64,000 bases of DNA, from NCBI GenBank assembly GCA_965207075.1, contig CBDBLO010000002.1:768001-832000 (forward strand). The letters run 5' to 3'. The position numbers and the translations under genes are program-made. Of this stretch, positions 10,229 to 40,477 are shown in pieces; position 1 is the stretch's first letter; each line of letters begins with the position of its first letter. This DNA is from Nitrosopumilus sp. Lineage in GTDB: Archaea > Thermoproteota > Nitrososphaeria > Nitrososphaerales > Nitrosopumilaceae. The notes below the pieces were generated by a model. It did not search any database. It saw nothing but the letters and a program-made list of their open reading frames with translations, and was not told where the DNA came from.

Positions 10229-10681
10229 CAGTCCACAAAAACCGGGTATTGTTTTCAATTCAGTGGGTCGGCGGTAGGCACGGGGATATACCACATTATC
10301 GCACCCCTCCGGGCGGCCCGGGGTGCCTGACAAACGTGAACGGATCTCGCCTTTCGGGCCTGGTACTCAACACCATAGCCAGGATCGTGGGCGAGCTTAA
10401 AAACGACTCGCGAAAGGAGGTAGCGGGCCCGCGCCGGCCCGCGCCGTTATGATGCCTGAGGACGCGAACCGGCCGCGGGACGGCCCGCGGGGGGCGCCGC
10501 CGTGCCGGGCAGGGACGATCGCGGGCGGGGAAGATATTCTCTCAGGCGCCGCATGCGGGCGTAGCCCGGCAGGGACGCGCCCGGCTGCGGGTTCCTGATC
10601 GGGCGCAGGTGGGGCGGCGCCCGGGCGGCGGGGCCGCATTCCGCAGGTGTTATTAAGGTGTCTTTTCAACAAGTTTCGTTG

Positions 10682-13600
10682 ATGCACGCACCGTTCGAGC
10701 GCGACGGCCTCTTGCATGCGCGTGCAAGCCGCCGTCCCCGGGGGGGGGGGGGTGCAACAAAGGCGTCCTGCATAATTGTACTCCTTGCGGTCCTGGTGGC
10801 CTTGGGGTCTGCCGACCATTCCTACGCGCAGACCAGCGTTTCAGACAGGGACGTCGTTCTTCCGGGCAACGACGCCCCCCGCGGCATCTGGTCCGACGGC
10901 ACCACCATGTGGGTCGCAGACGATACTGATGACAAGATCTACGCCTACACGCTCGCCGACGGGACCCGCGACGACACCAAGGAGTTCGACCTCGACCCGG
11001 AAAACGCCGACCCTGCCGAGATCTGGTCCGACGAGACCACCATGTGGGTCGCAGACTATATTGACGGCAAGCTCTACGCCTATACGCTCGCCGGGGGCGC
11101 CCGCGACGTGGACAAGGACATCACCCTTGCCGACAGCGACACCCCTGCAGAGGACAACGGCAGTCCCTGGGGCATCTGGTCCGACGGCACCACCATGTGG
11201 GTCTCAGACTATGCTGACGGCAAGCTCTTCGCCTACACGCTCGCCAACGGCACCCGCGACACCTCAAGGGAGTTTGACCTCCACGCCGACAACGCCGTCC
11301 CTTATGAAATCTTGTCCGACGGCACCACCATGTGGGTCACAGACATTTTTGATGGGAAGCTCTTCGCCTATACCATATCCACCAAGGCCCGCGACGCCGC
11401 CAAGGACATAGACCTCCACAGTGACAACGTTTCTCCTTACGGCACCTGGTCCGACGACACCACCATGTGGGTCGCAGACGATGTCGCTGACAAGCTCTTC
11501 GCCTATACCATATCCACCAAGGCCCGCGACCCTTCCAAGGACATGGACCTCCACGGCGACAGCGGCGACCCGTGGGGCATCTGGTCCGACGGCACCACCA
11601 TGTGGGTCTCAGACTGGCGTGACGACAAGCTCTACGCCTACGCGCTCGACGGCGGCGCCCGCGACGACACCAAGGACATGGACCTCGCTGCGGCCAACGA
11701 AGACCCACGCGGCATCTGGTCCGACCGCACCACGATCTGGGTCGCGGACGCTGTTGCTGCCAAGATCTACGCCTATACGCTCGCCGACGGAACCCGCGAC
11801 CAACCAAGGGAGTTTGACCTCCACGCCGACAACGACGCCCCCCGCGGCATCTGGTCCGACGGCACCACCATGTGGGTCGCAGACTTAAATGATGACAATC
11901 TGTACGCCTATACGCTCGCCAACGGCACCCGCGACGGCACCAGGGACGTCGACCTCGCCGCCGGCAACTCCGATCCTCACGGCATCTGGTCCGACGGCAC
12001 CACCATGTGGGTCGCAGACTTACTTGATGACAGGCTCTACGCCTATACACTCGGCGGGGGCGCCCGCAGCGACACCAAGGACATAGACCTCCACGGCGAC
12101 AACGGTTCTCCTGCCGGCCTCTGGTCCGACGGCACCACCATGTGGGTGGCAGACCATGGTTCTGACAGGCTCTTCGCCTATGCGTTCCCAAGCGGCGGCG
12201 TGCCGGACGGCTCCCGCGACTCCGCAAAGGACGTCGGCCTTGACGACGTCAACGCCAACCCAGAAGGCATCTGGTCCGACGGCACCACCATGTGGGTCGC
12301 GGACTTGGCTGAAGAAAAGCTCTACGCCTATACGCTCGCCGACGGCACCCGCGACACCTCAAAGGACGTCGACCTCTACGCCGACCCCCGCGGCATCTGG
12401 TCCGACGGCACCACCATGTGGGCCGCAAACTCTATTGACGACAGGCTCTACGCCTATACGCTCGCCAACGGCACCCGCGACACCTCAAGGGAGTTCGACC
12501 TCCACAGCGCCAATACCAACCCCGCCGGCATCTGGTCCGACGGCACCACCATGTGGGTCGCAGACAATCACGATGACAAGCTCTACGCCTACAAGCTCTC
12601 AGACGGCACCCGCGACACCTCAAAGGAGTTCAACCTCCACAGCGCCAATGACAACCCCCGCGGCATCTGGTCCGACGGCACCACCGTGTGGGTCGTCGAC
12701 GATGGTGACGACAAGCTCTACGCCTACAGGCTGTCAGACGGCAGCAGGGACGCGTTGCGGGATTTCGACCTCCACGGCGCCAACGTCGATCCTTTCGGAG
12801 TCTGGTCCGACGGCACCACCGTGTGGGTCGCAGACAATACTGATGACAAGCTCTTCGCCTACGAGCTCCCGGACAGCAGGGACGCCGCAAAGGAGTTCGG
12901 CCTCGTCCACGACAACCCCCGCGGCCTCTGGTCCGACGGCACCACCATGTGGGTCGCAGACATTGTTGATGCCAAGCTCTTCGCCTACAAGATCTCCAAC
13001 GGATTCCGCGACCCCGGCAGGGACGTCGACCTCCACGCCGACAACTTCGCGCCCTACGGCATCTGGTCCGACGGCATAACGATGTGGGTATCAGGCGAGG
13101 ATGGTGACAATCTCTTCGCCTACACCATGTCCACCAAGGCCCGCGACTCTTCCAAGGAGTTCGACTTCGCCGCCGACAACAACGATTCCGCCGGCATCTG
13201 GTCCGACGGCACCACCATGTGGGTCTCAGACTGGCGTGACGACAAGCTCTACGCCTATACGCTCGCCAACGGCACCCGCGATGCCGGCAAGGACATAACG
13301 CTCCACGCCGACAACGCCGACCCCCGCGGCCTCTGGTCCGACCGCACCACGATCTGGGTCGCGGACGTTGATGATGACAAGCTGTACGCCTACAAGCTCT
13401 CAGACGGGAGCCGCGACCAGTCAAGGGAGTTTCCCCTCCACGGCTCCAACGCCGACTCCTCCGGCGCCTGGTTCGACGGCACCACCATGTGGGTCTCAGA
13501 CTGGGGTGACGACAAGCTCTACGCCTACGCGGCCAGGAGCGTCGTCGACGCCGGCGCCGCCCCGGCAGTCGACGCCGGCCCTGACCTGGCAGTCGACGAG

Positions 13601-16600
13601 GGCGGCTCGGTCACCCTGAACGGCACGGCGACCGACCCCGACGGCGACGACCTTACGTACTTTTGGACCGCCGGCCCCGGCGCGCCCGGCGGCGCCATAA
13701 CCGACGGCACCGCGCTCAACGCCACGTTTGTCGCGCCGCTGGTCGCCGCCGACACAGAGTTCGCCCTCACGCTTACGGCCAGCGACGGCGCGGACGCGGC
13801 ATCGGACACCGTCACCGTGACGGTCAGGGACGACGGGTTCAAGCTCGACCCGGAAAACGGCATAGCCACCGGCCTCTGGTCCGACGGCACCACGATGTGG
13901 GTCGCAGACCTTGCCGATGAGAGGCTCTACGCCTACGCGCTCGACGGGACCCGCGACTCTTCCAGGGACGTCCAATTTACCACATCCACGACCAATGCCC
14001 TACAAATCTGGTCCGACGGCACCACGGTGTGGGTCGCAGACGAGGTTTTTGGCAACATCGAAGCTTATGAGTTCTCGACCGGCGAGCCCGACGACGACAA
14101 GGACATAGACGTCGACACCGTCACCTACGGCGCACCCGGGGGGGTCTGGTCCGACGGCACCACGATGTGGGCCGCATCTGATAGCAGGCACCTCATCGCC
14201 TACGCGCTGGCCGACGGCACCGTCGACGCCGGCAGGGGGTTCGCCTTAGCCGAAAGCGCCATTCCTTCAGATGACAACGGCGATCCAACCGGCATCTGGT
14301 CCGACAACACCACCATGTGGGTCGTCGACGATAGTGACGACAAGCTCTTCGCCTACACGCTCGACGGGGGAGCCCGCGACCCCGGCAGGGAGTTCGACCT
14401 CGACCCAGGCAACGACGATCCCAAAGGCATCTGGTCCGACGGCACCACCGTGTGGGTCTCAGACAGTATTGATGACAGGCTCTACGAATACCCCCTGCCG
14501 GACAACGCGCTCCCGCAGGTAGACGCCGGATCAGACCGCACGGCCTACGAGGGCGACACGGTCACCCTGGCGGCCATAGCGACGGACAGCGACGCCGGCG
14601 ACGCCCTTACGCACTACTGGACCGTCAGCCCGGCCACGCCGGCCGTCGCCATAGGCAACGGCACCGCGCTGAGCACCGCGTTCGTCGCGCCGGACGTCGA
14701 CGCGGACACCGCGTTCACCTTCACGCTTACCGCAAACGACGGCACGGCAGACGCCACCGACACCCTTACCGTGACGGTCCGCGACGGCGCGCCGCCTGAC
14801 GGCCCACGCGACATCGCGAGGGAGCTTGACCTCGCCGAAAGCGCCTTTCTCATAGAGGACAACGGCGATCCTGCCGGCGTCTGGTCCGACGGCACCACCG
14901 CGTGGGTCGCGGACTGGGGTGAAGATAAGCTCTACGCCTACACGCTCGGCGGGGGCGCCCGCGACCAATCAAGGGAGTTCGACCTCGACAGCGCCAACGT
15001 TTTACCCGGAGGCGTCTGGTCCGACGGCACCACCGTGTGGGTCGCAGAAACGTCTGTTGCCAAACTCTTCGCCTACTCGCTCTCAAACGGCACCCGCGAC
15101 ACCGCAAAGGAGTTCGACGCCGACGGCCACTTTTTTATCAGTGGCATCTGGTCCGACGGCGCCACGATGTGGATCTCAGACTCGAACATGGGCAAGCTCT
15201 TCGCCTACTCGCTCTCAAACGGCACCCGCGACGGCACCAAGGACGTCGGCCTCGCCGCCGGCAACTCCGATCCTTACGGCATCTGGTCCGACGGCACCAC
15301 CATGTGGGTCGTAGACCAACTTGGTGATAAGAAGCTCTTCGCCTACACGCTCGCCGACGGCGCCCGCGACCCCGGCAGGGACGTCGACCTCCACGAGGAC
15401 AACGCCGACCCTTACGGTGTCTGGTCTAATGGCACCACCGTGTGGGTCGTGGACAACGCTGATGACAAGCTCTACGCCTATGCCCTGCCGGACAACGCGC
15501 TCCCGCAGGTAGACGCCGGATCAGACCGCACGGCCTACGAGGGCGACACGGTCACCCTGGCGGGCATAGCGACGGACAGCGACGCCGGCGACGCCCTGAC
15601 GTACTCTTGGACCGTCAGCCCGGCCACGCCGGCCGTCGCCATAGGCAACGGCACCGCGCTGAGCACCGCGTTCGTCGCGCCGGACGTCGACGCGGACACC
15701 GCGTTCACCTTCACGCTTACCGCAAACGACGGCACGGCAACCGTAACCGACACCCTTACCGTGACGGTCCGCGACGGCGCGCCGCCTGACGGCCCCCGCG
15801 ACATCGCGAAGGAGTTTGACCTCGCCGAAAGCACCTCTATTGAAGAGGACAACGGCGATCCTTACGGCATCTGGTCCGACGGCACCACCGTGTGGGTCGC
15901 AGACAAGGGTGATGAGAAGCTCTACGCCTACACGCTCGGCGGGGGCGCCCGCGACCAACCAAGGGAGTTCGACCTCTACGAGGACACCATCAATTTTTCC
16001 GGGTATAACCAATCTCCTTTCGGCATCTGGTCCGACGGCACCACCGTGTGGGTCGCAGACTATACTGATGACAAGCTCTACGCCTACGCGCTCGCCGACG
16101 GCGCCCGCGACCAACCAAGGGAGTTTGACCTCCATGCCGACAACGCCGATCCCACCGGCGTCTGGTCCGACGGCACCACCGTGTGGGTCGCAGACAATGG
16201 TGATGACAGGTTCTTTGCCTACGCGCTCGCCGACGGCACCCGCGACCAACCAAGGGAGTTTGACCTCCACGCCAACAGCACCGCTCCTGCCGAGGACAAC
16301 GCCGATCCAACCGGCATCTGGTCCGACGGCACCACCGTGTGGGTCGCAGACGGTACTGATGCCAAGCTCTACGCCTACACGCTCGCCGACGGAACCCGTG
16401 ATGCCGCCAAGGATGTTAGCCTCGACTCCGACAACGCCGATCCCACCGGCATCTGGTCCGACGGCGCCACCGCGTGGGTCGCAGACTTAAGTGATGACAG
16501 GCTCTACGCCTACACGCTCCATCCCAACGATCCCCCTGCAGTCGACGCCGGCTCAGACCAGACAGTCGACGAGGGCGACGCGGTCGCGCTGGCCGGCACG

Positions 16601-18127
16601 GCGACTGACCCCGACGGCGACGACCTCACGTACTCCTGGGCCGTCAGCCCCCCCACCCCGGACATCACGATAAACGGCGGCGACACCCTGAGCCCCACCT
16701 TTACGGCCCCAGAGGTCGACGCGGACACCGAGTTCGCCTTCACGCTCACCGCCAGCGACGGCACGGCCGCGGCGTCAGACGCGGTAACGGTAACAGTCCG
16801 GCACGCCAACGCGCCCCCGCAGGTAGACGCCGGGGCGGACCGCACGGCCTACGAGGGCGACGCGGTCGCGCTGGCCGGCACGGCGACTGACCCCGACGGC
16901 GACGACCTCACGTACTCCTGGGCCGTCAGCCCCCCCACGCCCGCCATCACGGTAAGCGGCGGCGACACCCTGAACCCCACCTTTACGGCGCCGGGCGTCG
17001 ACGCCGACACGGCCTTCACCTTCACGCTCACCGCCAGCGACGGCACTGTAGATGCCGCCGACGCCCTCATAGTGACGGTCCGCAACGTCGGCGCGCAGGA
17101 GCCCGTCGCCGACGACACGCCGGAAAGCGCCCTCACGGTCAGGGCGGGGCCGGCCCAGGTGGTGCCGGAGGGCGGCACGGTGGTGCTGTCGGGCGCCGCC
17201 GCGTCCCCGGGCGGAGGAGACATCGCGTACGCGTGGAGCCACAACGGCCCCCCAGCACTGGCGCTCTCCGGCGCCGCCTCCCAGACCGCCAGCTTTACGG
17301 CGCCCCGGGTGGACCGCGACTGGCACGTCACCTTCAGGCTGACGGCAAGCGACGGCGAGCACTCGGCGTATGACACCGTGCTGGTCATAATCAGGGACAT
17401 GCAGGCGGCGCGGCAGCAGAACGCGGCGCCGTCCCTCGCCCTCCCGGGCGGCCCGTACGTGCAGCTCATGAGGGGCGCCGCCTACCAGGGCCCCTCGTGC
17501 CACGACGCCGAGGACGGGATTATCGCGGGCATCTCCTCCACGGGCGCGGTCGACACCGGGACCCCGGGCACCTATACGGTCACGTACACCTGCACCGACA
17601 GCGGCGGCCTCTCGGACTCCGCGTCGCAGACCGTGGTGGTACACGCCTACAGGGCCCAGGTCGTCATGGGCCCGCCGAACCCCGCGATACTCGAGGTGGG
17701 CGCCCCCTACTCGGACCCCGGAGCCTCCTGCGAGTTCCCCGACGGCTCAAGCGGCCCCGCCGCCGTGGCGCGCAGCACCGTGGACACGTCGAGGCCCGGC
17801 ACGTACCTGGTCTCGTACGCGTGCAGCGGCCCGGAAGGCGAGGTCCTTGCCGCCGAGTCCAGGCGCGTCATAGTCAAGAGCCCCGGCGCCGACCTGGCGC
17901 CGGTCATACACCCCCCGTCGCCGATGACCATAACCGCGGGCCAGGCGTGGACCGACCCCGGCATAACCTGCACCGACGACCTCGACCCGGACCCCGTCGT
18001 GAGGGTGGCGGCCACGGACCTCGACATCTGGACGCCGGGCGAGTACCGCGTATACTACACGTGCACCGACGACGCCGGGAACGGGGCCACGGCCTCCCGG
18101 GTAGTCACGGTCGCGCCGCGGCAGTAG
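10682..18127 (+). CDS. giant secreted/surface protein: 35 GIWSDGTT beta-propeller blades (20+5+5+5), PKD-like domains, three C-terminal Cys-containing DUF5011-like Ig domains
   Basis: uninterrupted ~2480-aa ORF with strong GC3 bias; hydrophobic signal segment ending AYAQ-like (HSYAQ); VDAGPDxxVxEG modules; TATA-like TTATTAA at 10650 favours ATG 10682. Confidence 0.93.
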   Translation: MHAPFERDGLLHARASRRPRGGGGATKASCIIVLLAVLVALGSADHSYAQTSVSDRDVVLPGNDAPRGIWSDGTTMWVADDTDDKIYAYTLADGTRDDTKEFDLDPENADPAEIWSDETTMWVADYIDGKLYAYTLAGGARDVDKDITLADSDTPAEDNGSPWGIWSDGTTMWVSDYADGKLFAYTLANGTRDTSREFDLHADNAVPYEILSDGTTMWVTDIFDGKLFAYTISTKARDAAKDIDLHSDNVSPYGTWSDDTTMWVADDVADKLFAYTISTKARDPSKDMDLHGDSGDPWGIWSDGTTMWVSDWRDDKLYAYALDGGARDDTKDMDLAAANEDPRGIWSDRTTIWVADAVAAKIYAYTLADGTRDQPREFDLHADNDAPRGIWSDGTTMWVADLNDDNLYAYTLANGTRDGTRDVDLAAGNSDPHGIWSDGTTMWVADLLDDRLYAYTLGGGARSDTKDIDLHGDNGSPAGLWSDGTTMWVADHGSDRLFAYAFPSGGVPDGSRDSAKDVGLDDVNANPEGIWSDGTTMWVADLAEEKLYAYTLADGTRDTSKDVDLYADPRGIWSDGTTMWAANSIDDRLYAYTLANGTRDTSREFDLHSANTNPAGIWSDGTTMWVADNHDDKLYAYKLSDGTRDTSKEFNLHSANDNPRGIWSDGTTVWVVDDGDDKLYAYRLSDGSRDALRDFDLHGANVDPFGVWSDGTTVWVADNTDDKLFAYELPDSRDAAKEFGLVHDNPRGLWSDGTTMWVADIVDAKLFAYKISNGFRDPGRDVDLHADNFAPYGIWSDGITMWVSGEDGDNLFAYTMSTKARDSSKEFDFAADNNDSAGIWSDGTTMWVSDWRDDKLYAYTLANGTRDAGKDITLHADNADPRGLWSDRTTIWVADVDDDKLYAYKLSDGSRDQSREFPLHGSNADSSGAWFDGTTMWVSDWGDDKLYAYAARSVVDAGAAPAVDAGPDLAVDEGGSVTLNGTATDPDGDDLTYFWTAGPGAPGGAITDGTALNATFVAPLVAADTEFALTLTASDGADAASDTVTVTVRDDGFKLDPENGIATGLWSDGTTMWVADLADERLYAYALDGTRDSSRDVQFTTSTTNALQIWSDGTTVWVADEVFGNIEAYEFSTGEPDDDKDIDVDTVTYGAPGGVWSDGTTMWAASDSRHLIAYALADGTVDAGRGFALAESAIPSDDNGDPTGIWSDNTTMWVVDDSDDKLFAYTLDGGARDPGREFDLDPGNDDPKGIWSDGTTVWVSDSIDDRLYEYPLPDNALPQVDAGSDRTAYEGDTVTLAAIATDSDAGDALTHYWTVSPATPAVAIGNGTALSTAFVAPDVDADTAFTFTLTANDGTADATDTLTVTVRDGAPPDGPRDIARELDLAESAFLIEDNGDPAGVWSDGTTAWVADWGEDKLYAYTLGGGARDQSREFDLDSANVLPGGVWSDGTTVWVAETSVAKLFAYSLSNGTRDTAKEFDADGHFFISGIWSDGATMWISDSNMGKLFAYSLSNGTRDGTKDVGLAAGNSDPYGIWSDGTTMWVVDQLGDKKLFAYTLADGARDPGRDVDLHEDNADPYGVWSNGTTVWVVDNADDKLYAYALPDNALPQVDAGSDRTAYEGDTVTLAGIATDSDAGDALTYSWTVSPATPAVAIGNGTALSTAFVAPDVDADTAFTFTLTANDGTATVTDTLTVTVRDGAPPDGPRDIAKEFDLAESTSIEEDNGDPYGIWSDGTTVWVADKGDEKLYAYTLGGGARDQPREFDLYEDTINFSGYNQSPFGIWSDGTTVWVADYTDDKLYAYALADGARDQPREFDLHADNADPTGVWSDGTTVWVADNGDDRFFAYALADGTRDQPREFDLHANSTAPAEDNADPTGIWSDGTTVWVADGTDAKLYAYTLADGTRDAAKDVSLDSDNADPTGIWSDGATAWVADLSDDRLYAYTLHPNDPPAVDAGSDQTVDEGDAVALAGTATDPDGDDLTYSWAVSPPTPDITINGGDTLSPTFTAPEVDADTEFAFTLTASDGTAAASDAVTVTVRHANAPPQVDAGADRTAYEGDAVALAGTATDPDGDDLTYSWAVSPPTPAITVSGGDTLNPTFTAPGVDADTAFTFTLTASDGTVDAADALIVTVRNVGAQEPVADDTPESALTVRAGPAQVVPEGGTVVLSGAAASPGGGDIAYAWSHNGPPALALSGAASQTASFTAPRVDRDWHVTFRLTASDGEHSAYDTVLVIIRDMQAARQQNAAPSLALPGGPYVQLMRGAAYQGPSCHDAEDGIIAGISSTGAVDTGTPGTYTVTYTCTDSGGLSDSASQTVVVHAYRAQVVMGPPNPAILEVGAPYSDPGASCEFPDGSSGPAAVARSTVDTSRPGTYLVSYACSGPEGEVLAAESRRVIVKSPGADLAPVIHPPSPMTITAGQAWTDPGITCTDDLDPDPVVRVAATDLDIWTPGEYRVYYTCTDDAGNGATASRVVTVAPRQ
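10740..10752 (+). repeat. G13 homopolymer inside the 5' coding region
   Basis: run of 13 G upstream of the signal-peptide codons, currently in frame. Confidence 0.85.
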
Positions 18128-18373
18128 CGCGCCGCCGCCCATCACGCCGGTCCGCGAGGCGGCGCTCATGCCCGGGGCAGGCCGGACCCCCCCAGGAATC
18201 CGGACCGGCGCATCCAAAGAAGGGAGCCCCCCCACGCCGGCGGGCTCGCGCCGCCGGCATAAAGATCACATGACCAACCCTGCAGTCTGGGAAGGGCGCC
18301 GAGTTCATACGTATGCGCCCCCCACCCCGCCCATACCTTGGCGCACCGGTTGCGGCTCTGGACGGCCCTCCCC

Positions 18374-18989
18374 GTAACTGGTTGGGTTGAGCACGAGGCC
18401 AGACTTTCCAGATCATCAGATCTATCGTACTGGGCACGCACAGACGCAGTGTCAAGCCCCTCCGGGGTCAAGCTGCTGCGAGACGAGCTCGCACGGGTCA
18501 CGGCGGGGGTCAAAGAGGGATGCGGCCCTGGAGCAGCTGAACATACAGAACGAGCGGATGAGGGGTCAGCTGGGCGGGGGAGGCGGGCGCATCACATGCT
18601 ACGAGAGCCCGCACAGCCCGCCGTCTGCCAGCCCCATCCCCGAGAGGCGGAAGAAGGCGGCCCCAAGGAAGGACCCGGCGGACTACAGGAGGCCCGGGCG
18701 GAGGCCGGGGCGCGGGGGCGTCTCGCGCGGCCGCAGGCCGTCGCCGACCGTACACCACGTCCCCGGCAAGTGCGGGGGTGCGGCCGCGTCACGGAGGCCC
18801 CGTCGCTGTACGAGGACGGCGTCGGGGTTGCAGTCAGGGGGACGTCACTCGGGCCCGTCCTCGCCTCAAGGGCGGTGCAGATGTGGGAGAAGCACGTGAG
18901 CACGAGCGGGATCGCGGACATACTGAACGACGCCTTCGGGATTCAACTCGGGAGGGCCGCGGCGCAGGGCGCGCTGGCGGCCGCGGCGC
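18374..18989 (+). mobile_element. IS66-family remnant, copy 1 (left end plus 5' part, truncated)
   Basis: starts GTAACTGGTT; YESPHSPPS, RRPGRRPGRGG motifs; near-identical to the reverse complement of ~21160-21814. Confidence 0.8.
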
Positions 18990-19021
18990 ACGAATTGGCA
19001 CCAGCGCCTGTAACTGGTTAG

Positions 19022-20431
19022 AATACCTGATAACCCCTTCGACGTACCAGCCGTGATGAAGCGACCCCTGGCGGACTATGGGACAATGCACCCTTTGGTT
19101 AGAATGGGGCAATCCGAGCTGCTGTATGACTGGGCTGCGAGCCCTGATAGGAGTGTGCAGCTTCCGTTTCGTCAAAAATGCATCCGACCAGGAGGTGATG
19201 GCAAAGGATGAAGATGGGCATAGGAATCGACATCAGCAAGAAAAAGTGTGACTATTGCATAATCAACGGCAGGGGAAGGGTCCTCTAGCGTGGACAGTAT
19301 CTTAACACGCAAAAGGATGCAGGGCGGTGTGCGCGGACCATACTTGCCAAGTATGGCAGGATGGGAAACTGCACGGCCGCGTGTGGGACCACCGCCAACA
19401 TGTGGATTGCGACGGCCGACGCATTTGAGCGCGCCGGCATTGGGATCAAGCTTGCCAACTCATACAAGATGGCGCTGATCAACAAGACCGGAAAAAAGAC
19501 CGACAAGATCGACGCCGAGAAGATAGCGCAGATACTCAGGATGGGCTCGATACCGGAGTGCTACGTGCCGCCGGCGCGCACGCGCGGCGTCAGGAACATG
19601 GTGCGGCAGCATGTCCGTCTGGTGCAGGCAAGGACCAGGGTGGTAAACCGGGTACACAGCCTGCTTGACGCGCACGGCAAGACCGTGCATGCGGCCAACA
19701 TGTACTCGCACAAGGCACTGTCCTACCCGGACTCGCTCAGTCTTGGCGACGCGCAGGACGACTTTGTGCTGAGGCAGTGTGTCAGAAGGATGAGGCACTA
19801 CACAAGCGAGATTACGGAGATCGACAGGCAGTTGGAGGCAGAGGCAGCGCAGAACGAGGATGCAAAGCTGCTTGCCAGCATGACCGGCATTGGAATCTAC
19901 ACGGCCATGCTCCTGGCATCTGAGATATCCGAAATATCAAGGTTTGAGACTCCAAAACAGATGATCTCGTGGGCGGGACTGTGTCCGACCGTCAGGCAGT
20001 CCGGCAACGAGATGCGCCTTGGAAGGATAAAGAAGCTTGGCACCGACGGCCTGGTCAACTGGGCGGTGTGCGAGGCGGCCAACGTGGCAGTCAAGTACGA
20101 CGCGAGGATGAAGGCCGCATACGAGGCCGCATGCAGGCGGCACGCTGGCAAGCACATGCTTGGGATCGTTGTGGTGGCCCACAAGATGGTCACCATAATG
20201 TGGCACATGCTGAAAAACCGAACCCCATACGAGTCGCGCAACGATGATCTGTACAGGCGCAAGCTGGCCAGACTGGAGAAAAGACGGCAGGGCAAGGCAT
20301 AGCCACTGCACATGCACGTGTACATACCAACCTCTAGCGTTAGCTATAAACAGCATGTCCCCCTCCTAGGCGTGAGACGGATGGAATATCGGAAAGATCC
20401 GGCTCGTACGTTCAGGGGTTATCATAGGAGG
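19022..20431 (+). mobile_element. IS110-family element with subterminal inverted repeats (IS1111-like ends)
   Basis: imperfect IR 19028-19053 / 20400-20424; flanked by AG on both sides; its removal restores the IS66 end seen at 38849. Confidence 0.88.
19208..20302 (+). pseudogene. IS110-family DEDD recombinase with premature stop
   Basis: GIDISK, KTDKIDA, GIG, WAGLCPTVRQSG motifs; in-frame TAG at 19286-19288; the second catalytic E position reads G (ACGTTAN). Confidence 0.88.
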
Positions 20432-21893
20432 AGGTTCCGCTCAGGATATTCGGCGGCATGCCCGACACGTTGAGGCCCCGCTTCCTCCACGTCGGCACGC
20501 ACGTCACTATGTATGAGAACGTCCTGGCGCCCTCCAGGCTGGCGATCCTGAACCGGATCTTCCGGGCCATGTCCACCTTCCTCAGCATCCGCTCGGACTC
20601 GTTGTTGGTCGGGTCCACCCCCGGGCAGTTGACGAACGTGAACAGGAAGGGCGCGGCGTTGGCAGGCTTCGTGGCAAACGTTGCGCCCGCGGCGCGCAGG
20701 CCGAACCGCCGCGCGATGGCAGCGGCGGCCGCGGCCGCTTCCATGGGCCCCGTGCCCACCTCGGGGCCGCCGGGGCCGCGCCGCCCGAGCTTGGCGTCGC
20801 GGTACAGCCGTACCAGAGCCGTGCAGCGCGGCCAGCTCCGGGGCCGCTTCCCCGTGCTCCCTGGCCGGCGCGCCGGACTCGCGCAGTATGTGGGCCCGGC
20901 ACCGCTGCCTGGCGGCATACCCGGCATACCCGGAGTACCCGTCGCACGCCGGGGGCTTGTCGCGGTACGGCTCGACGCGGTCCATCACGACGCCTGCGCG
21001 CGACGGCGGGGCGTGCACGACAACGGAGTCCCCGCCAATGACGGCCCACACGTAGCCGCCCCCGCGCGGGAACCCGTACGTCGTCTCGTCGGCCTTGAGG
21101 TTCGGGGCCCCGCCCAGCGACCCCGCGATGCCGTCCCTCTCGGCCTGCAGCGCCCTGCCCGCGGCCGCCAGCGCGCCCTGCACCGCGGCCCTTCCGAGGT
21201 TTGTCCCGAAGGCGTCGTTCAGAATGTCCGCGATCCCGCTCGTGCTCACGTGCTTCTCCCACATCTGCACCGCCCTTGATACGCGGACGGGCCCGAGGGA
21301 CGTCCCCCTGACTGCAACCCCGACGCCGTCCTCGTACAGCGACGGGGCCTCCGTGGCGCGGCCGCACCCCCCGCACTTGCCGGGGACGTGGTGTACGGTC
21401 GGCGACGGCCTGCGGCCGCGCGAGACGCCCCTGCGCCCCGGCCTCCGCCCGGGCCTCTTGCAGTCCGCCGGGTCCTTCCTTGGGGCCGCCTTCTTCCGCC
21501 TCTCGGGGATGGGGCTGGCAGACGGCGGGCTGTGCTGGCTCTCGTAGCATGTGATGCGCCCGCCTCCCCCGCCCAGCTGCCCACTCGGCTGCCCGTTCTG
21601 CACCTTCAGCTGCCCAATCTCGATCCTCGTCTGCCCGTTCTGCACCTTCAGCTGCTCCGGGGCCGCATCCCTCTTTGACCCCCGCCGTGACCCGTGCGAG
21701 CTCGTCTCGCAGCAGCTTGACCCCGGAGGGGCTTGACACTGCGTCTGTGCGTTCCCAGTACGATAGATCTGATGATCTGGAAAGTCTGGCCTCGTGCTCA
21801 ACCCAACCAGTTACAGCAAAATGGGGGACAGGCGGGTTCTGGTCCGCACCTGCAATGGCGGCCCGCTCATACTGAAACCGCCGCAGCCGCATC

Positions 21894-24800
21894 CTACGAC
21901 TGGGTGGATAGCCTGACGAAGTTGGAGGCGCCCGACTCGCCGTGCCCGTTGATTGCGATTATCCTGAAGACGTAGACGGTCTCCGGGTCGAGGCCGGCGA
22001 CCGCGTAGGAGGTGCCCGGCGCGCCGGTGTCCTCGACCAGCACCGAGAGCCGGTCCTCGGTGGCCGGCGTCCTGGACATTATCTTGTAGCCGGTTATCGA
22101 GCCGTCACCGGGGTCGTCCCAGGTCAGGGTGATGGTCGCGTTGGCGGAGGTCGCCTGGAGGTTCCGGGGGGCGGCCGGCGGGCTGGCCGGGATGTCGTTT
22201 GTGGCGGCGACCGCCGCCGTGCCGGAAGACAGCCTGACGAAGTTGGAGGCGCCCGACTCGCCGTGCCCGTTGATTGCGATTATCCTGAAGACGTAGACGG
22301 TCTCCGGGTCGAGGCCGGCGACCGCGTAGGAGGTGCCCGGCGCGCCGGTGTCCTCGACCAGCACCGAGAGCCGGTCCTCGGTGGCCGGCGTCCTGGACAT
22401 TATCTTGTAGCCGGTTATCGAGCCGTCACCGGGGTCGTCCCAGGTCAGGGTGATGGTCGCGTTGGCGGAGGTCGCCTGGAGGTTCCGGGGGGCGGCCGGC
22501 GGGCTGGCCGGGATGTCGTTTGTGGCGGCGACCGCCGCCGTGCCGGAAGACAGCCTGACGAAGTTGGAGGCGCCCGACTCGCCGTGCCCGTTGATTGCGA
22601 TTATCCTGAAGACGTAGACGGTCTCCGGGTCGAGGCCGGCGACCGCGTAGGAGGTGCCCGGCGCGCCGGTGTCCTCGACCAGCACCGAGAGCCGGTCCTC
22701 GGTGGCCGGCGTCCTGGACATTATCTTGTAGCCGGTTATCGAGCCGTCACCGGGGTCGTCCCAGGTCAGGGTGATGGTCGCGTTGGCGGAGGTCGCCTGG
22801 AGGTTCCGGGGGGCGGCCGGCGGGCTGGCCGGGATGTCGTTTGTGGCGGCGACCGCCGCCGTGCCGGAAGACAGCCTGACGAAGTTGGAGGCGCCCGATT
22901 CGCCGTGCCCGTTGATTGCGATTATCCTGAAGACGTAGACGGTCTCCGGGTCGAGGCCGGCGACCGCGTAGGAGGTGCCCGGCGCGCCGGTGTCCTCGAC
23001 CAGCACCGAGAGCCGGTCCTCGGTGGCCGGCGTCCTGGACATTATCTTGTAGCCGGTTATCGAGCCGTCACCGGGGTCGTCCCAGGTCAGGGTGATGGTC
23101 GCGTTGGCGGAGGTCGCCTGGAGGTTCCGGGGGGCGGCCGGCGGGCTGGCCGGGATGTCGTTTGTGGCGGCGACCGCCGCCGTGCCGGAAGACAGCCTGA
23201 CGAAGTTGGAGGCGCCCGATTCGCCGTGCCCGTTGATTGCGATTATCCTGAAGACGTAGACGGTCTCCGGGTCGAGGCCGGCGACCGCGTAGGAGGTGCC
23301 CGGCGCGCCGGTGTCCTCGACCAGCACCGAGAGCCGGTCCTCGGTGGCCGGCGTCCTGGACATTATCTTGTAGCCGGTTATCGAGCCGTCACCGGGGTCG
23401 TCCCAGGTCAGGGTGATGGTCGCGTTGGCGGAGGTCGCCTGGAGGTTCCGGGGGGCGGCCGGCGGGCTGGCCGGGATGTCGGTTATGGTGACGACCGCCG
23501 TGTCGGAGGCGGAGGCGCCGTGTTGGTCGGTGGCCGTCAGCGTCAGGGAGACTGCGGCAGTCGAGTTGACCTGCGGGGCGGCAAAGCTGGTGGCCGGCGA
23601 GGTGGCGTTCTCAAGCTGTATGGCCGGGCCGGTGGCGTTGTGGGTCCACAGGTAGGCCAGGCCGTCGCCGTCCCGGTCGGTGGCGCCGCCCGACAGGGCG
23701 ACCGTCTCGCCCTCGTTGACGGACTGGTCGGGGCCCGCGTCGACTGACGGCGGGGAGTTGTAGCCGCGGACCGCGCCGAGGGCGGCCGCGTCCACCACGT
23801 ACGACTGGTCCTCGCCGGTGGGAGCGAGGGCGGCCAGCGGATTGCCCGCCAGGTCGGCCACGGCGCCGTACGGGGCGATGCCCAGGCCGTAGGTGCCGTT
23901 CCGGGCGGCCGAGACGGTCACGGTATACTCGCTGCCGCCGCCGGTCAGGCCGGTCACGGCGGCGCCGGCGTCGTCGTACCCGACCTCCAGTGTCCATTCG
24001 TTGAGGACTCCCGTATCGGCCTCCACAAGGTCGTGCACGCGCAGCGTCCAGTCTCCCGCGGTCCGGGCGCCGGCAAGGTCCGGCGCGTACGTGCCCGCGA
24101 TGCCGCCTGCGCCTGCGCCGGCTGGATCGTGCAGCAGCGCGGCCCTTCCGTCCGGCGAGATCAGATCGATCCTGAGATCGCTGGCGTAGGGGTGCGTTAC
24201 GTTCAGGCGGACCGAGACGGCCTTGGCGGGTCCGAGGTCGGGGACGCTGATCGCGTCGAGCACGGGGCTTCCGGCATCGTACTGCCTCGGATTGCCCGGG
24301 CCCTTCTGGTGCAGGGGCGGGATGGACGGGTGCGTGGAACGGCTGGCGTCCGGTATGGCGAGCGACGGCGCCGACGTCTGCGAGAACCGCCCGGGCGTGA
24401 CCGCGTCGCCGGACACGGCCAGAAAGTCGGCCATGTCCACGCCGGCGACCGGCTCGCTGAAGGACACGTCGAATGACAGCAGGCGGTCCGGGGCGGCCTG
24501 CGCCGCCCCGCCGCTCCGCGTGAAGGACTTGACGGTCGGGGGGCCGGTGAGCACCGTGTACGACTGGTCCTCGCCGGCGGGGGCGGTCCCGGCCAGCCGG
24601 TTGCCCTCCGGGTCGGCTATGCCGTTGTCCGGGGCGACGTCCAGGCCGTAGGTGCCGTCCCGGGCGGCCGAGACGGCCACGGCGTACTCGCTGCCGCCGC
24701 CGGTCAGGCCGGTCACGGCGGCGCCGGTGTCGTTGTAGGAGACCGTGACGGTCCACCCGTTCAGCACGCCCGAGTCCTGCCGGTCAAGGTCGCGCACGTG

Positions 24801-27800
24801 GAGCGTCCAGTCGCCTGCCGCCTCCACGCCGGCAAAGTCCGGCTCGTACGTCCGGCGCAGGTCCTGGCCCGCCGCGCCCGCGCGGTCGTGCAGCGCCCTG
24901 GAGGTTCCGTCCGGCGAGACCAGGCTCACCCTGAGATCGCCTATGAACGAGTGCGTTATGTCGAGGTCGACGGATACGGAGGCGACTGCGCCCGGGCGCC
25001 CAACCGCGACGGCGTCGCGGATCGTCGTCCCGAACGGTATGGGCGCAGACGGCGTGCTGGAATAGGCGGATCTCTCGTATTCGAGCGGCTCCTCGAGGAC
25101 CGGCACAAAGTCGCCCCGGTCCACCCCGGTGACCGGCCTGCTGAAGTTGACGTGGAACACCACGTCCCCGCTGCCGGTGATCCGGCCCTCGGGGGATCCC
25201 TTGGTGATGGACTCCACGGCGGCGGCGGGTGCCTCCGGTTCGTCGGCGGCGACCTCGATGGCCAGGTCGGCGGTGGCGGCGGCAATCCCGCTGCCGCCGA
25301 CGCCGTAGACCGCGCCCCGTCCGATGTCCAGCTGCGGGGACGCCATCAGGGCAAGGTCGGCCCGCTGCCGGGCGGAGAGCGTGGCCGTGACGGTCGGGCC
25401 CGAGGATCCCCCGGGCAGGGCCCCGTCCAGCGCGATGCCCCCCTCGGACCGGCCGGCGTCCCTGATGTGGAGGCGGTCGTAGTGGACGGTCCCGTTGAGC
25501 GGCTCGCTGAAGGTGATGGACAGCCGTCCGGTCGCGGCCGAGTATGCGGCCGAGGAGAACTTTGGCCCTCCGGCCGACCCTCCCGCCCCCTCGAAGGCCA
25601 CCTCGAGCACGTTGGAGGCGGTGTTGGCGTTGCCGGCCGGGTCGGAGACGAGGCCGGCCGGTATCCGGGCGGCGACCAGGCCGTCGCCGGCCGGGGTCAG
25701 CGTGAAGGCGAAGGTGAGGTTGCCCGAGACGTGCCGCAGGCCCGAGGCGGTGCCGCCGGTGACGGACACGTCGTCGCCCAGGTCGAAGGTGGCCGCGTCG
25801 ATGGCCTCGCCGAAGTCGACGTCCACCCGGACGGAGCCGGCGCTGGTCGGGGAGGGGGAGGCGGTGCTCAGCGACGGCGCCGGCCCTGTCGTGTCACGGA
25901 CGGCTATCGGGTTGCCGGCCGAGGCCGCTATCGGGTTGCCGGAGGCGTCGGAGACGGCGCCCGCGTCGATGTCCAGCTGCGGCGCCGCCAGGTCCGCGAG
26001 GGATGCGCGCTGCGGGCCGGTGAGGGTGACGGCCAGGGAGCGGCCGTCGACTGACGGGGCGGCCCCGGCCAGGGTCACGCCGCCGCTGCCGCCGGACCGG
26101 CCGGCGTCCCTGATGTGGAGGCGGTCTAGGTGGACGGTCCCGTTGAGCGGCTCGCTGAAGGCGATCGCCAGCGTGCCGTTGGCCGCGTGGTATGCGGCCC
26201 AGAGCGGGGCGGGCGGGGACGAGTCGCCCCCCACGGTGACCAGGACGGTCCGTGAGTGGGTCGCGGCGCCGGCCCCCTCCCCCAGGACGCCCCTGGCGGT
26301 GATGGTGACGTTGTAGCTGCCCGGCGCGGGGTCCAGGCCGGCCTTGACTGCCAGCGCCCCGTCGGCCACCACGAAGAGGCCGCCGCCCTCCGCGGACTCG
26401 TCCACCGCGTAGGCGGGGCCCCGGCCGTCCAGCCAGGCGTTCTGCGCCCGTATGGGCAGCGCGTCGCCGGCGGCCGAGATGGTTGTGTCGTCCAGCACTA
26501 TGTACCAGCCGCCCAGGTTCCGGGCGAAGCTGCCGGCTACAAGGAGCATCTCGGACATGTCGGCGGCCGCCGAGACGTTCCATCCGGATATGTCGCCGTT
26601 GAAGGCGCCGGCGCCGCTGAACATCCGGCTCATGTCCGTCACCGAGGAGACGTCCCAGTCCGAGAGGCTGCCGTTGAACTGGGAGGCGAACCTGAACATC
26701 CCGGACGCGTCCGTCACGGCGGACAGGTCGGGGGCGTCGGTCGCCCTGTACACCATGTTTGACGCGCCGGCAAACGCGCCGCTCATCGACCTCCACCTGA
26801 TGTCGCCCCACTGCTCTATCGACTTGAGCTTTAGCGCGTTGGCGGGATGGTGTGGCAGGTGGATGCTGGCAAGGTCCCCGTATATGCTGACGGTGTAGGT
26901 CCCGGGCGACTCGTACACGTGCGAACTGTCCCCGGAGACGTCGGTGTCGACGCTGGCGTCGCCCCAGGTGACCGTGTAGGTGCCCGCGGCGTCCCCCACC
27001 GTGATTACCACGTACTCGTCGTCTCCGGTCGTCTGCCAGGTGGTGACGAACGCGGCGTCGGGCGCGGTGCCGGCCGGGGCGGCCGTGACGGTGAGGGCCA
27101 GCAGGTTTGACGCGGTGTTGCTGTTGCCCGCCGGGTCCAGCACGGCGCCCTCGGGGATGGAGACCGTCAGGTTGCCCGCCGCCAGCCCGTACACCTCGAA
27201 GGTGAACTCCCTGGCGGTGCCCGCAGCCGGCGCGGGGGCCGACACAGTCCCGCCCGACGCCGACACGTCCGAGCTGCCGAACGTGGCCGCGTCCACCGGC
27301 TCGCCAAAGTCCACCGAGAAGGCGACGCGGTCGGCGCTGGTCGGGGACGGCTCGGCGGTGGAGATCGAGGGGGACGGGCGGGTCCGCTCCACGAGCATCA
27401 CGTACGGGTCCGACGCGGTGTTGCTGTTGCCCGCCGGGTCCAGCACGGCGCCCTCGGGGATGGAGACCGTCAGGTTGCCCGCCGCCAGCCCGTACACCTC
27501 GAAGGTGAACTCCCTGGCGGTGCCCGCAGCCGGCGCGGGGGCCGACACCGTCCCGCCCGACGCCGACACGTCCGAGCTGCCGAACGTGGCCGCGTCCACC
27601 GGCTCGCCAAAGTCCACCGAGAAGGCGACGCGGTCGGCGCTGGTCGGGGACGGCTCGGCGGTGGAGATCGAGGGGGACGGGCGGGGCCGCTCCACGAGCA
27701 TCACGTACGGGTCCGACGCGGTGTTGCTGTTGCCCGCCGGGTCCAGCACGGCGCCCTCGGGGATGGAGACCGTCAGGTTGCCCGCCGCCAGCCCGTACAC

Positions 27801-38848: not shown

Positions 38849-40376
38849 GTTACCGGTTAGGTTCCGCTCAGGATATTCGGCGGCATGCCCGACACGTTGA
38901 GGCCCCGCTTCCTCCACGTCGGCACGCACGTCACTATGTATGGGAACGTTCTGGCGCCCTCCAGGCTGGCGATCCTGAACCTGATCTTCCGGGCCATGTC
39001 CACCTTCCTCAGCATCCGCTCGGACTCGCTGTTGGTCGGGTCCACCCCCGGGCGGTTGACGAACGTGAACAGGAAGGGCGCGGCGTTGGCAGGCTTCGTG
39101 GCAAACGTTGCGCCCGCGGCGCGCAGGCCGAACCGCCGCGCGATGGCAGCGGCGGCCGCGGCCGCTTCCATGGGCCCCGTGCCCACCTCGGGGCCGCCGG
39201 GGCCGCGCCGCCCGAGCTTGGCGTCGCGGTACAGCCGTACCAGAGCCGTGCAGCGCGGACAGCTCCGGGGCCGCTTCCCCGTGCTCCCTGGCCGGCGCGC
39301 CGGACTCGCGCAGTATGTGGGCCCGGCACCGCTGCCTGGCGGCATACCAGCCGTACCCGGAGTACCCGTCGCACGCCGGGGGCTTGTCGCGGTACGGCGC
39401 GACGCGGTCCATCACGACGCCTGCGCGCGACGGCGGGGCGTGCACGACAACGGAGTCACCGCCAATGACGGCCCACACGTAGCCGCCCCCGCGCGGGAAC
39501 CCGTACGTAGTCTCGTCGGCCTTGAGGTTCGGGGCCCCGCCCAGCGATCCCGCGATGCCGTCCCTCTCGGCCTGCAGCGCCCTGCACCGCGGCCGCCAGC
39601 GCGCCCTGCACCGCGGCCCTCCCGATACCCGCCCCGATACCCGCCCCGAAGGCGTCGTTCAGAATGTCCGCGATCCCGCTCGTGCTCACGTGCTTCTCCC
39701 ACATCTGCACCGCCCTTGAGACCAGGACGGGCCCCGGCGACGTCCCCCTGACTGCAACCCCGACGCCGTCCTCGTACAGCGACGGGGCCTCCGTGACGCG
39801 GCCGCACCTCCCGCATACGCCGTCGTGCGCCGCGTGGGAGACGGTCGCCGCCCCGGGCGCGGGCGGGACGTCGGTGGCCTGCCTCATGTCCGCGATGCGT
39901 CCCGCCCCCAGCCTGCTGCTGCCGCACCCCCGGCACTCACCGGGGACGTGGTGTACGGTCGGCGACGGCCTGCGGCCGTGCGAGACTCCCCTGTGCCCCG
40001 GCCTCCGTCCGGGCCTCTTGCAGTCCGCCGGGTCCTTCCTTGGGGCCGCCTTCTTCCGCCTCTCGGGGATGGGGCTGGCAGACGGCGGGCTGTGCGGGCT
40101 CTCGTAGCATGTGATGCGCCCGCCTCCCCCGCCCAGCTGCCCCCTCGGCTGCCCGTTCTGCACCTTCAGCTGCTCAATCTCGATCCTCGGCTGCCCGTTC
40201 TGCCCCCTCAGCTGCCCCAGGGCCGCATCCCTCTTTGACCTCCGCCGTGACCCGTGCGAGCTCGTCTCGCAGCAGCTTGACCCCGGAGGGGCTTGACACT
40301 GCGTCTGTGCGTGCCCAGTACGATATAGATCTGGTGATCTAGAAAGTTTGACCTTGTGCTCAATCTAACCAGTTAC
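38849..40376 (-). mobile_element. IS66-family element, copy 3 (pseudogenised, most complete)
   Basis: ends GTTACCGGTT / AACCAGTTAC; retains the CxxC...CxxC zinc-finger segment (~39810-39925) that copies 1 and 2 have lost. Confidence 0.88.
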
Positions 40377-40477
40377 AAGTTCCGGCGCCGTAATGTTTAA
40401 AATGACTCTGTAAGAATGGCGACTGTGGTTTATTCCATTATTCCCGCCATGATCCGGTTCGCACAGGATCCGGCAAC

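Follow-up and report, generated by a model that had tools for sequence, protein, structure and literature searches.

A decayed IS110-family element, probably RNA-guided, inside an IS66-like terminal repeat of a Nitrosopumilus genome

We analysed a stretch of 64,000 nt (hereafter the window) from the genome of Nitrosopumilus sp. (GCA_965207075.1, contig CBDBLO010000002.1, positions 768,001 to 832,000). It contains a copy of an IS110-family element, c1 (19022–20433, plus strand, with the boundaries placed by the initial annotation), which is very probably (about 0.88) a decayed RNA-guided insertion sequence of IS1111-like design, native to Nitrosopumilaceae-type archaea. Three directly observed features carry this reading: the anatomy of the element, the covariation of an RNA structure in its upstream end, and the covariation of guides in the loops of this structure with the insertion flanks and with the ends of the element. 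The genome had a size of 2.23 Mb, in two contigs (C1 and C2), and a G + C content of ~60%. Its archaeal origin, claimed earlier from the letters of the window, was confirmed by a full-length match to the archaeal small subunit (SSU) model, with 1459.5 bits, adjoining an archaeal large subunit (LSU) match.

Anatomy and insertion site of c1

The left junction of c1 read GTAACTGGTT-AG-AATACC (19010–19027), and the right junction TAGGAGG-AG-GTTCCGCTCAGG (20425–20445). The subterminal inverted repeats had 11 nt each, TGATAACCCCT on the left (19028–19038, plus strand) and AGGGGTTATCA on the right (20414–20424, plus strand). The terminal extension was 6 nt on the left (AATACC, 19022–19027). On the right it consisted of TAGG and the core AG (4 + 2 nt), plus an extra triplet, the count being ambiguous with respect to the core. 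The non-coding ends were 186 nt upstream (19022–19207) and 131 nt downstream, in agreement with the initial annotation, which had pointed to IS1111-like subterminal repeats combined with a long non-coding end upstream of the gene. The junctions, repeats and 186-nt end that it described, its 7-mers TGGTTAG (19096–19102) and ATAGGAG (19147–19153) and its TAG (19286–19288) were all found at the positions it gave.

The right target of c1 is a complete IS66-like element, copy B (20434–21815, minus strand), with a DDE_Tnp_IS66 transposase (PF03050) between its terminal inverted repeats (TIRs). A further IS66-like element, copy C (38849–40377, minus strand), had an uninterrupted site, GTTACCGGTTAGGTTCCGCTCAGG (38849–38872), identical at 22 of 24 positions to the sequence left after excision of c1. 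The 18-mer GGTTAGGTTCCGCTCAGG of this site occurred a single time in the window. Filled and empty sites were therefore both present in the window, as had been proposed from the c1 junctions and copy C.

The near end of the IS66-like TIR read GTAACTGGTTAG/GTTCC (slash, position of c1), and the far ends of copies A (see below), B and C all stopped at ...CCAGTTAC and diverged beyond. From this comparison of near and far ends, the TIR is GTAACTGGTT[A/G]GGTT at both ends, starting with GTAAC at 19010, and c1 is inserted 12 nt inside it. IS66 TIRs typically begin with GTAA. The outer 12 nt (GTAACTGGTTAG, 19010–19021, plus strand) hold the left target and the core AG (19020–19021). The insertion had initially been placed beside the IS66 terminal repeat, and this has to be corrected to inside it. 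The IS66-like hosts are also decayed, since the DDE domain of copy B was split across two reading frames and copy C was fragmented. The IS66-like frame usually ends at a TAA within the TIR; that of copy B extends 22 nt into the right end of c1.

The surroundings of c1 are rearranged. A partial IS66-like copy A (18374–18986, plus strand) lies inverted relative to copy B (inverted repeats I1–I3, 94–96%), so that copies A and B (18374–18986 and 21159–21814, 94–96% complementary) bracket c1, a layout that could permit inversion of the segment between them. Between the truncated copy A and the TIR of copy B there was a 19-nt IS6-like TIR end, ACGAATTGGCACCAGCGCC (18990–19008), the rest of the IS6-like element being missing. 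The inverted copy A and the IS6-like remnant directly to the left, together with the lack of a visible 8-bp target duplication for copy B, would fit an arrangement that arose by recombination or duplication between insertion sequence copies already carrying the element, and not by insertion into copy B. We regard such a history as rather unlikely. It would change only the place of the original insertion, and the junctions would still coincide exactly with the site that the guides specify in an IS66-type TIR, just as they do in a relative from another assembly (L031) and in the X2/X3 contigs of one study.

The right end of c1 carried one surplus AGG/GAG triplet (20431–20433). Probably, the canonical element ends at 20428 and is followed by the core (20429–20430) and then by the extra triplet, because the donor guide described below, the joint of the sister copy in the X2/X3 contigs and the close relative L006 agree on CATAGG followed by the core AG. 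The initial annotation had let the element end with ...TAGGAGG, with the core AG at 20432–20433 and no extra triplet. This boundary yields the excision product that matches the empty site at 22 of 24 positions, but it is rather improbable: the donor guide reads ATAGG+AG and not AGGAGG+AG, the sister copy in X2/X3 has CATAGGAGG followed by TTGAGCA (that is, CATAGG-AG-GTTGAGCA), and L006 reads CATAGG-AG-AGGAGG. The three AGG in tandem in c1 would suit slippage. The AG core and the left junction of the initial annotation stand, and its right end has probably to be moved by one triplet.

The recombinase pseudogene (19208–20302, plus strand) carried the domains DEDD_Tnp_IS110 and Transposase_20. 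Read through its single internal TAG, the frame matched PF01548 (2.1e-22) and PF02371 (2.3e-20). Its intact homologue P0002 (364 aa, 92% identical, the best of 22) matched the bridge recombinases of ISCro4 (8.3e-14) and IS621 (1.9e-11), both of solved structure, in line with the family assignment made initially. The TAG (19286–19288) falls on codon 27, which among the 22 aligned homologues encoded Glu in 18, Asp in two, Asn in one and Gln in one. The catalytic Glu60 of the ACETTAN motif was kept in 21 of the 22 homologues and was Gly in c1 (GGG, 19385–19387), which lacks the intact DEDD set and retains D8, D99 and D102. By descent, as judged from these matches, c1 belongs to the IS110 family, and the copy itself is non-functional. 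The stop codon and the missing catalytic Glu in its recombinase deprive c1 of autonomous transposition; inactivation had been noticed earlier from the TAG. A reading of TAG as a sense codon was rejected, as homologues have GAG or GAT there and the catalytic Glu is also lost in c1. At 19286, G accounted for 901 of 1619 depth units in the contigs from run X3, giving GAG, which indicates that alleles or paralogues with an intact codon 27 exist elsewhere.

Three further copies were present in the genome: c2 (C2:680403–681812), 82% identical and frameshifted, c3, with internal deletions, and c4, of which only the right end is left. The search for an intact recombinase copy yielded the homologue P0002 and none in the window's genome, where tblastn with P0002 returned the known broken copies plus one homologue of 33% identity. 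The latter (C2:1039835–1040671, minus strand) aligned with P0002 residues 78–362, belongs to another lineage, and gave no match to the RNA model described below. A metagenome scan for close intact relatives found only one locus, on a contig of 1.3 kb and with 58% identity, and this locus was set aside.

The upstream RNA and its guides

To compare c1 with relatives, we used a tblastn-confirmed scan of species-representative genomes. It gave 151 relatives, 80 of which were kept: 52 from Nitrosopumilaceae/Thaumarchaeota assemblies (loci L006–L057) and 28 from haloarchaea, at ~30% identity. Upstream regions were alignable among the Nitrosopumilaceae/Thaumarchaeota relatives. The alignment, A2, had 36 rows, from these 52 archaeal loci plus c1–c3. 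Left out were loci without a left end (L006, L029, L030, L036, L037 and L047), loci near-identical to kept rows (L011, L012, L015, L021, L026, L035, L039, L048, L049 and L055) and divergent ones (L043, L051 and L052).

Folding of the upstream end gave a covariation-supported structure with two internal loops. The core of the candidate bridge or seek-RNA (~119 nt, 19055–19173, plus strand) was delimited by the consensus fold, pair counts and a covariance model. In the RNAalifold consensus of the 36 sequences, an outer stem P1 of 9 bp (19055–19063 with 19165–19173) encloses a target arm and a donor arm. Each arm has a stem (CCCC/GGGG in the target arm, GCTGC/GCAGC in the donor arm), an internal loop and a capping hairpin. 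Pairing was found in 96.2% of the 899 cells of A2, compared with 85.0% in shuffles (0 of 500 reached the observed value) and 33–49% with slid partners. Both sides had changed in 17 of 25 pairs, and the capping hairpins alternated between GGG/CCC, GTG/CAC, GAT/ATC, GCG/CGC and GCA/TGC. The c1 sequence alone folded into the same helices (−47.2 kcal/mol, z −2.33).

A covariance model, R1, built on the trimmed alignment, matched four places in the window's genome: c1 (120.4 bits), c2 (105.6), c3 (85.7) and an orphan (47.6). Among 150 other genomes of the host's family, 28 were matched as well (one of the 28, G077, being unpublished), with up to 23 matches per genome and in 11 of 27 genera, including that of the window. 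None of the 19 loci searched among the haloarchaeal relatives (~30% identity) matched R1, and an Rfam search of window positions 18000–22000, with E up to 1, gave no match. The orphan RNA remnant (C1:22590–22886) had no recombinase gene. C1 matched C2 on both sides of it (95 and 98.6%), with ~0.3 kb in C1 where C2 (57953–63930) has ~6 kb; this is a structural variant, that is, two versions of the region.

The two 7-mers of the initial annotation lie on the 3′ sides of the internal loops of this conserved structure, TGGTTAG in the target loop and ATAGGAG in the donor loop, and their target-then-donor order held. In the target loop, the 3′ side (19094–19105, plus strand) contains the left-target guide plus core, TGGTTAG (19096–19102), followed by AAT. 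The 10-mer formed by guide, core and AAT, TGGTTAGAAT, was identical to the left junction at 19015–19024. It occurred exactly twice in the window, at the junction and in the guide, with 0.03 expected and two occurrences in 0 of 100 shuffles. Its 7-mer had been recognized from the start as target flank plus core, and it covaried across 32 elements (A2 without L025, L027, L042 and L050, whose left end was deleted, absent or not located). Left-target guide and left flank shared on average 4.75 of 8 identities, against 2.02 in mismatched pairings, and none of 10000 permutations was as high. Loop and flank had the same core in all 32 elements: AG in c1, c2, c3 and L031, and TG in the other 28. Together with the filled and empty sites, this documents insertion at a specific site with a short core and no duplication of a longer target stretch. 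In nearly all 36 relatives the AAT after the core (19103–19105) is the same as the start of the left end (AA[T/C]), and could be a handshake-type donor contact or merely a conserved stem junction.

On the 5′ side of the target loop (19069–19079, plus strand) lies the right-target guide, GCGGAC in c1 (19071–19076). The 6 nt before CA, the complement of the core, pair with the right flank over its first 6 nt; across 22 TG-core elements, a mean of 4.27 of 6 positions formed Watson-Crick pairs, compared with 1.80 in cross-pairings and 1.1–2.0 after shifts of 1–2 positions (0 of 10000 permutations), and six elements paired at 6/6. For the AG-core elements an alternative register, with CT at alignment columns 77–78, was tried and was no better (c1 1/6, c2 3/6 pairs).

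The donor loop showed the same layout. Its 3′ side (19145–19156, plus strand) holds the left-donor guide plus core, ATAGG+AG, of which 19147–19153 are identical at 7/7 to the right end of the element at 20424–20430, as the initial annotation had stated. The right end was located in 24 of the 36 elements. In 20 of these 24, c1 among them, the left-donor guide matched the final 7 nt of the right end, with the core, at 7/7, and the variants ATAGGTG, ATAGATG, ATAGGAG and ATGGGTG changed jointly in guide and end. ATAGGAG by itself is ordinary (four in the window, 2.9 expected), and only its register among the aligned family members gives it meaning. On the 5′ side of the donor loop (19123–19131, plus strand) lies the right-donor guide, in c1 with GTAT (19124–19127) complementary to ATAC (19023–19026). 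Across the family this guide paired with the start of the left end at a mean of 5.06 of 6, including G-U pairs (0 of 10000 permutations), with the compensatory switches AACACA/TGTGT, AATACA/TGTAT, AAGACA/TGTCT and AATGCA/TGCGT. Convincing right-hand guides had been missed initially; they lie on the 5′ sides of the loops, with support for their register across the family and weak matches in c1. The combination of unrelated sites with unchanged guides was not seen, as c2 and ~30 relatives at other sequences carried other guides.

Several observations weigh against an RNA-guided c1. Its right-target guide paired at only 3/6 without a gap: GCGGAC predicts GTCCGC, the flank reads GTTCCGC (20434–20440), and the match is full only with a 1-nt bulge, a single T. 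Its right-donor guide paired at only 4/6, and its right junction is 3 nt longer than a clean insertion predicts. Among the other copies and relatives, the c2 donor guide matched at 3/7 and the c3 left-target guide at 3/8, and the right-target guides of L018 and L053 formed 0/6 and 1/6 pairs. The donor signal is partly plain conservation, as cross-pairing with different ends still gave 5.75/7 and 4.53/6. The elements are also related by descent, so the permutation tests overstate their independence, and RNA, circle and transposition are predicted here from sequence. No RNA run was among the sequencing runs listed as containing the stretch, and no circle junction was seen in the contigs. The guide exceptions among relatives may reflect decay or rearrangement, as we assume.

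In the mechanism we propose, the DEDD recombinase of an active relative would bind an RNA of ~120 nt made from the non-coding end upstream of the gene. Within the target loop, the left target plus the 2-nt core would be repeated on the 3′ side, which would pair with the bottom strand, and the complement of the right target would lie on the 5′ side. The donor loop would present the right end plus core on its 3′ side and the complement of the left-end start on its 5′ side. The RNA would thereby bring the joined ends of an excised circle, with the predicted junction ...ATCATAGG-core-AA[TC]AC..., to the chosen site, where the recombinase would exchange strands at the core (AG in the c1 lineage, TG in most relatives). 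The guides of c1 would specify the IS66-like TIR, leading to insertion 12 nt inside it. We infer that the RNA is made and bound, that a circle intermediate exists, that exchange takes place at the core and that a TATA-like box at the right end drives expression. For the latter, a conserved AGCGTTAGCTATAAA (20336–20350, plus strand) resembles an archaeal B recognition element (BRE)/TATA box, faces the right end, and is a putative promoter. Its consensus AGCGnTAGCT[A/T]TAAA was conserved, with TATAAA or TTTAAA 85–89 nt from the right end, facing outward, in 20 of 24 elements, and the 33 nt at the start of the left end showed no comparable box. The outward box at the right end and the lack of one at the left end suggest that RNA and recombinase may be transcribed mostly through the abutted ends of the circle, in parallel with the junction promoters of bacterial members.

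Recognition of the sites by protein-DNA contacts alone, with the structure being a translation-regulating 5′ leader and the flank likeness a by-product, is highly improbable. In its favour, a conserved GGAGGTGA was found between the structure and the start codon, 8–10 nt upstream of the latter, which makes the region a leader as well, and the RNA-protein complex is a predicted one. Against it, a leader gives no reason for loops that change with the flanks in 32 and 22 elements, fails to explain the joint core change in target guide, donor guide, flank and end, and does not fit with the use of such RNAs by homologous recombinases with solved structures (PMC11208160).

Retargeting among copies and relatives

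If the upstream RNA guides insertion, copies at different sites should differ in their guides. In c1 the flank was ..CTGGTTAG and the guide TTGGTTAG. In c2 the left flank was TTCGCAACAG, and the guide read CTCGCAACAG where c1 carries TTTGGTTAG. The c2 flank corresponds to the end of a repeat that occurs ~60 times in the genome (with up to 3 mismatches), often as inverted pairs, whose uninterrupted sites read ...CAACAG/TACC. One pair of these repeats delimits an element of 4.68 kb whose 30-bp TIRs are 97% complementary (C2:1024050–1028730; L086, 151–4829), and which carries the only IS240/IS6-type DDE transposase of the genome, plus a methylase-HNH gene. As this repeat bounds an element with an IS240/IS6-type transposase, c2, c3 and c4 were assigned to IS6-like TIRs, in which they sit 4 nt inside. 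A REP- or attC-like palindrome had been considered as the target of c2, and was dropped once the 4.68-kb element was found. The genome thus contains an example of natural retargeting, between an IS66-like TIR and an IS6-like TIR. The initial proposal of an RNA-guided element parasitising IS66 holds for c1 and covers only a part of the picture, the sister lineage being directed at the IS6-like TIR.

The IS6-like TIR family has the form GGTACTG[G/T]TGC[A/G]AATTCG... and presumably resembles the IS26 TIR. Many other pairs of these TIRs enclosed genes for a sulfotransferase, a DUF4344 peptidase or a PAEA-repeat membrane protein, or only 50–600 bp. They look like non-autonomous, cargo-carrying derivatives.

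The IS66-type target was also found elsewhere. L031 had the left flank GTTACCGGTTAG. In the X2/X3 contigs the left end of the element adjoined ..GTTACAGGTTAG, with the joint ...GCAGTTACA/GGTTAG, and the right end CATAGGAGG was joined to TTGAGCATAAGGTCAAACTTTCTAGAT, a far-end IS66-type TIR. The right ends of L031 and L042, from the same assembly, both broke after GGTTAAC and continued with the same sequence, CATATGTGGCAATCAC..., which gives the impression that another element entered the right subterminal repeat at an identical position in both.

Relation to known elements and genomic surroundings

The two described designs differ in the placement of the RNA and in the repeats. According to PMC11208160, the RNA of the IS110 group lies in the long left end, with subterminal repeats of 2–3 bp, and the IS1111 group has long right ends and repeats of 7–17 bp. 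For IS1111 seekRNAs, PMC11187229 gives repeats of 11–13 bp and a top-strand match 5′ of the bottom-strand match, the reverse of IS110, and lists a few IS1111 members, ISMtsp17 included, with an upstream non-coding region. Left terminal extensions in the IS1111 group measure 6–7 bp, right ones 3 bp. As a class, archaeal IS110 recombinases have been described before, with 662 counted in a preprint (10.1101/2024.06.21.599552).

Judged by its sequences, the c1 family has the repeats and the guide order of the IS1111 type and places its RNA upstream. With the IS1111 seekRNA elements ISEc11, ISKpn4 and ISPa11, as presented by Siddiquee et al. 2024 (PMC11187229), it shares the DEDD recombinase, subterminal repeats of ~11–13 bp, a short extension, a top-strand-complementary segment 5′ of the bottom-strand one, and natural reprogramming among relatives. 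Unlike these elements, whose RNA usually lies downstream of the gene in that account, c1 has its RNA upstream and an archaeal host, and the donor-binding part of its family is also a simple internal loop. The IS1111 likeness is one of repeats and guide order. With the bridge RNA of IS621, as outlined in Durrant et al. 2024 (PMC11208160), the family shares the upstream long left end, the target loop followed by the donor loop, the 2-nt core in the guides of both loops, and recombinase homology (E 1.9e-11). It departs from the IS110 group of the same source by a reversed guide order and by subterminal repeats of 11 nt instead of 2–3 bp. ISMtsp17 also has IS1111-type features and an upstream non-coding region, by its description in PMC11187229. 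ISEc21, of the IS110 family, is RNA-guided with a natural target inside another insertion sequence; unlike the c1 family, it targets the coding region of an IS3-family transposase and not a TIR, and has its guides in IS110 order (same source).

The position of c1 also has a counterpart among elements that settle in the ends of other transposons. IS4321/IS5075, reportedly described by Partridge and Hall in 2003, are said to be of the IS1111 type, with subterminal repeats, and to insert within the TIRs of other transposons at a constant position. These elements are reportedly bacterial and target Tn21-family TIRs, whereas the c1 family targets IS66-like and IS6-like TIRs, in an archaeon. A literature search found no description of the family or of targeting of IS66 or IS6 TIRs; paper supplements, which were outside this search, may list relatives.

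Tentatively, the Nitrosopumilaceae elements might form a distinct type bridging IS110 and IS1111, with IS1111 repeats and guide order, an upstream RNA in which a long-range stem of 9 bp closes a three-way junction with simple target and donor arms, an outward promoter for expression mainly from the circle, and one lineage specialised solely by guide changes in disabling the TIRs of DDE transposons (IS66-like and IS6-like). The copy c1 is a fossil, and a clear but ordinary addition to a known kind of mobile element. It extends RNA-guided IS110-family transposition, as read from genome sequences with dozens of natural guide-target pairs, to ammonia-oxidising archaea, and adds one more exception between the IS110 and IS1111 designs. 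To our knowledge, ammonia-oxidising archaea lack genetic tools, and intact relatives of c1 would be candidates for site-specific integration in them.

The cluster of insertion sequences around c1 is flanked by two giant reading frames, at window positions 10658–18127 and 21894–30293, of 2489 and 2799 aa. One has many repeats of the type WSDGTTMWV, and the other has 321-nt tandem repeats (from 21907) encoding fibronectin-like units.

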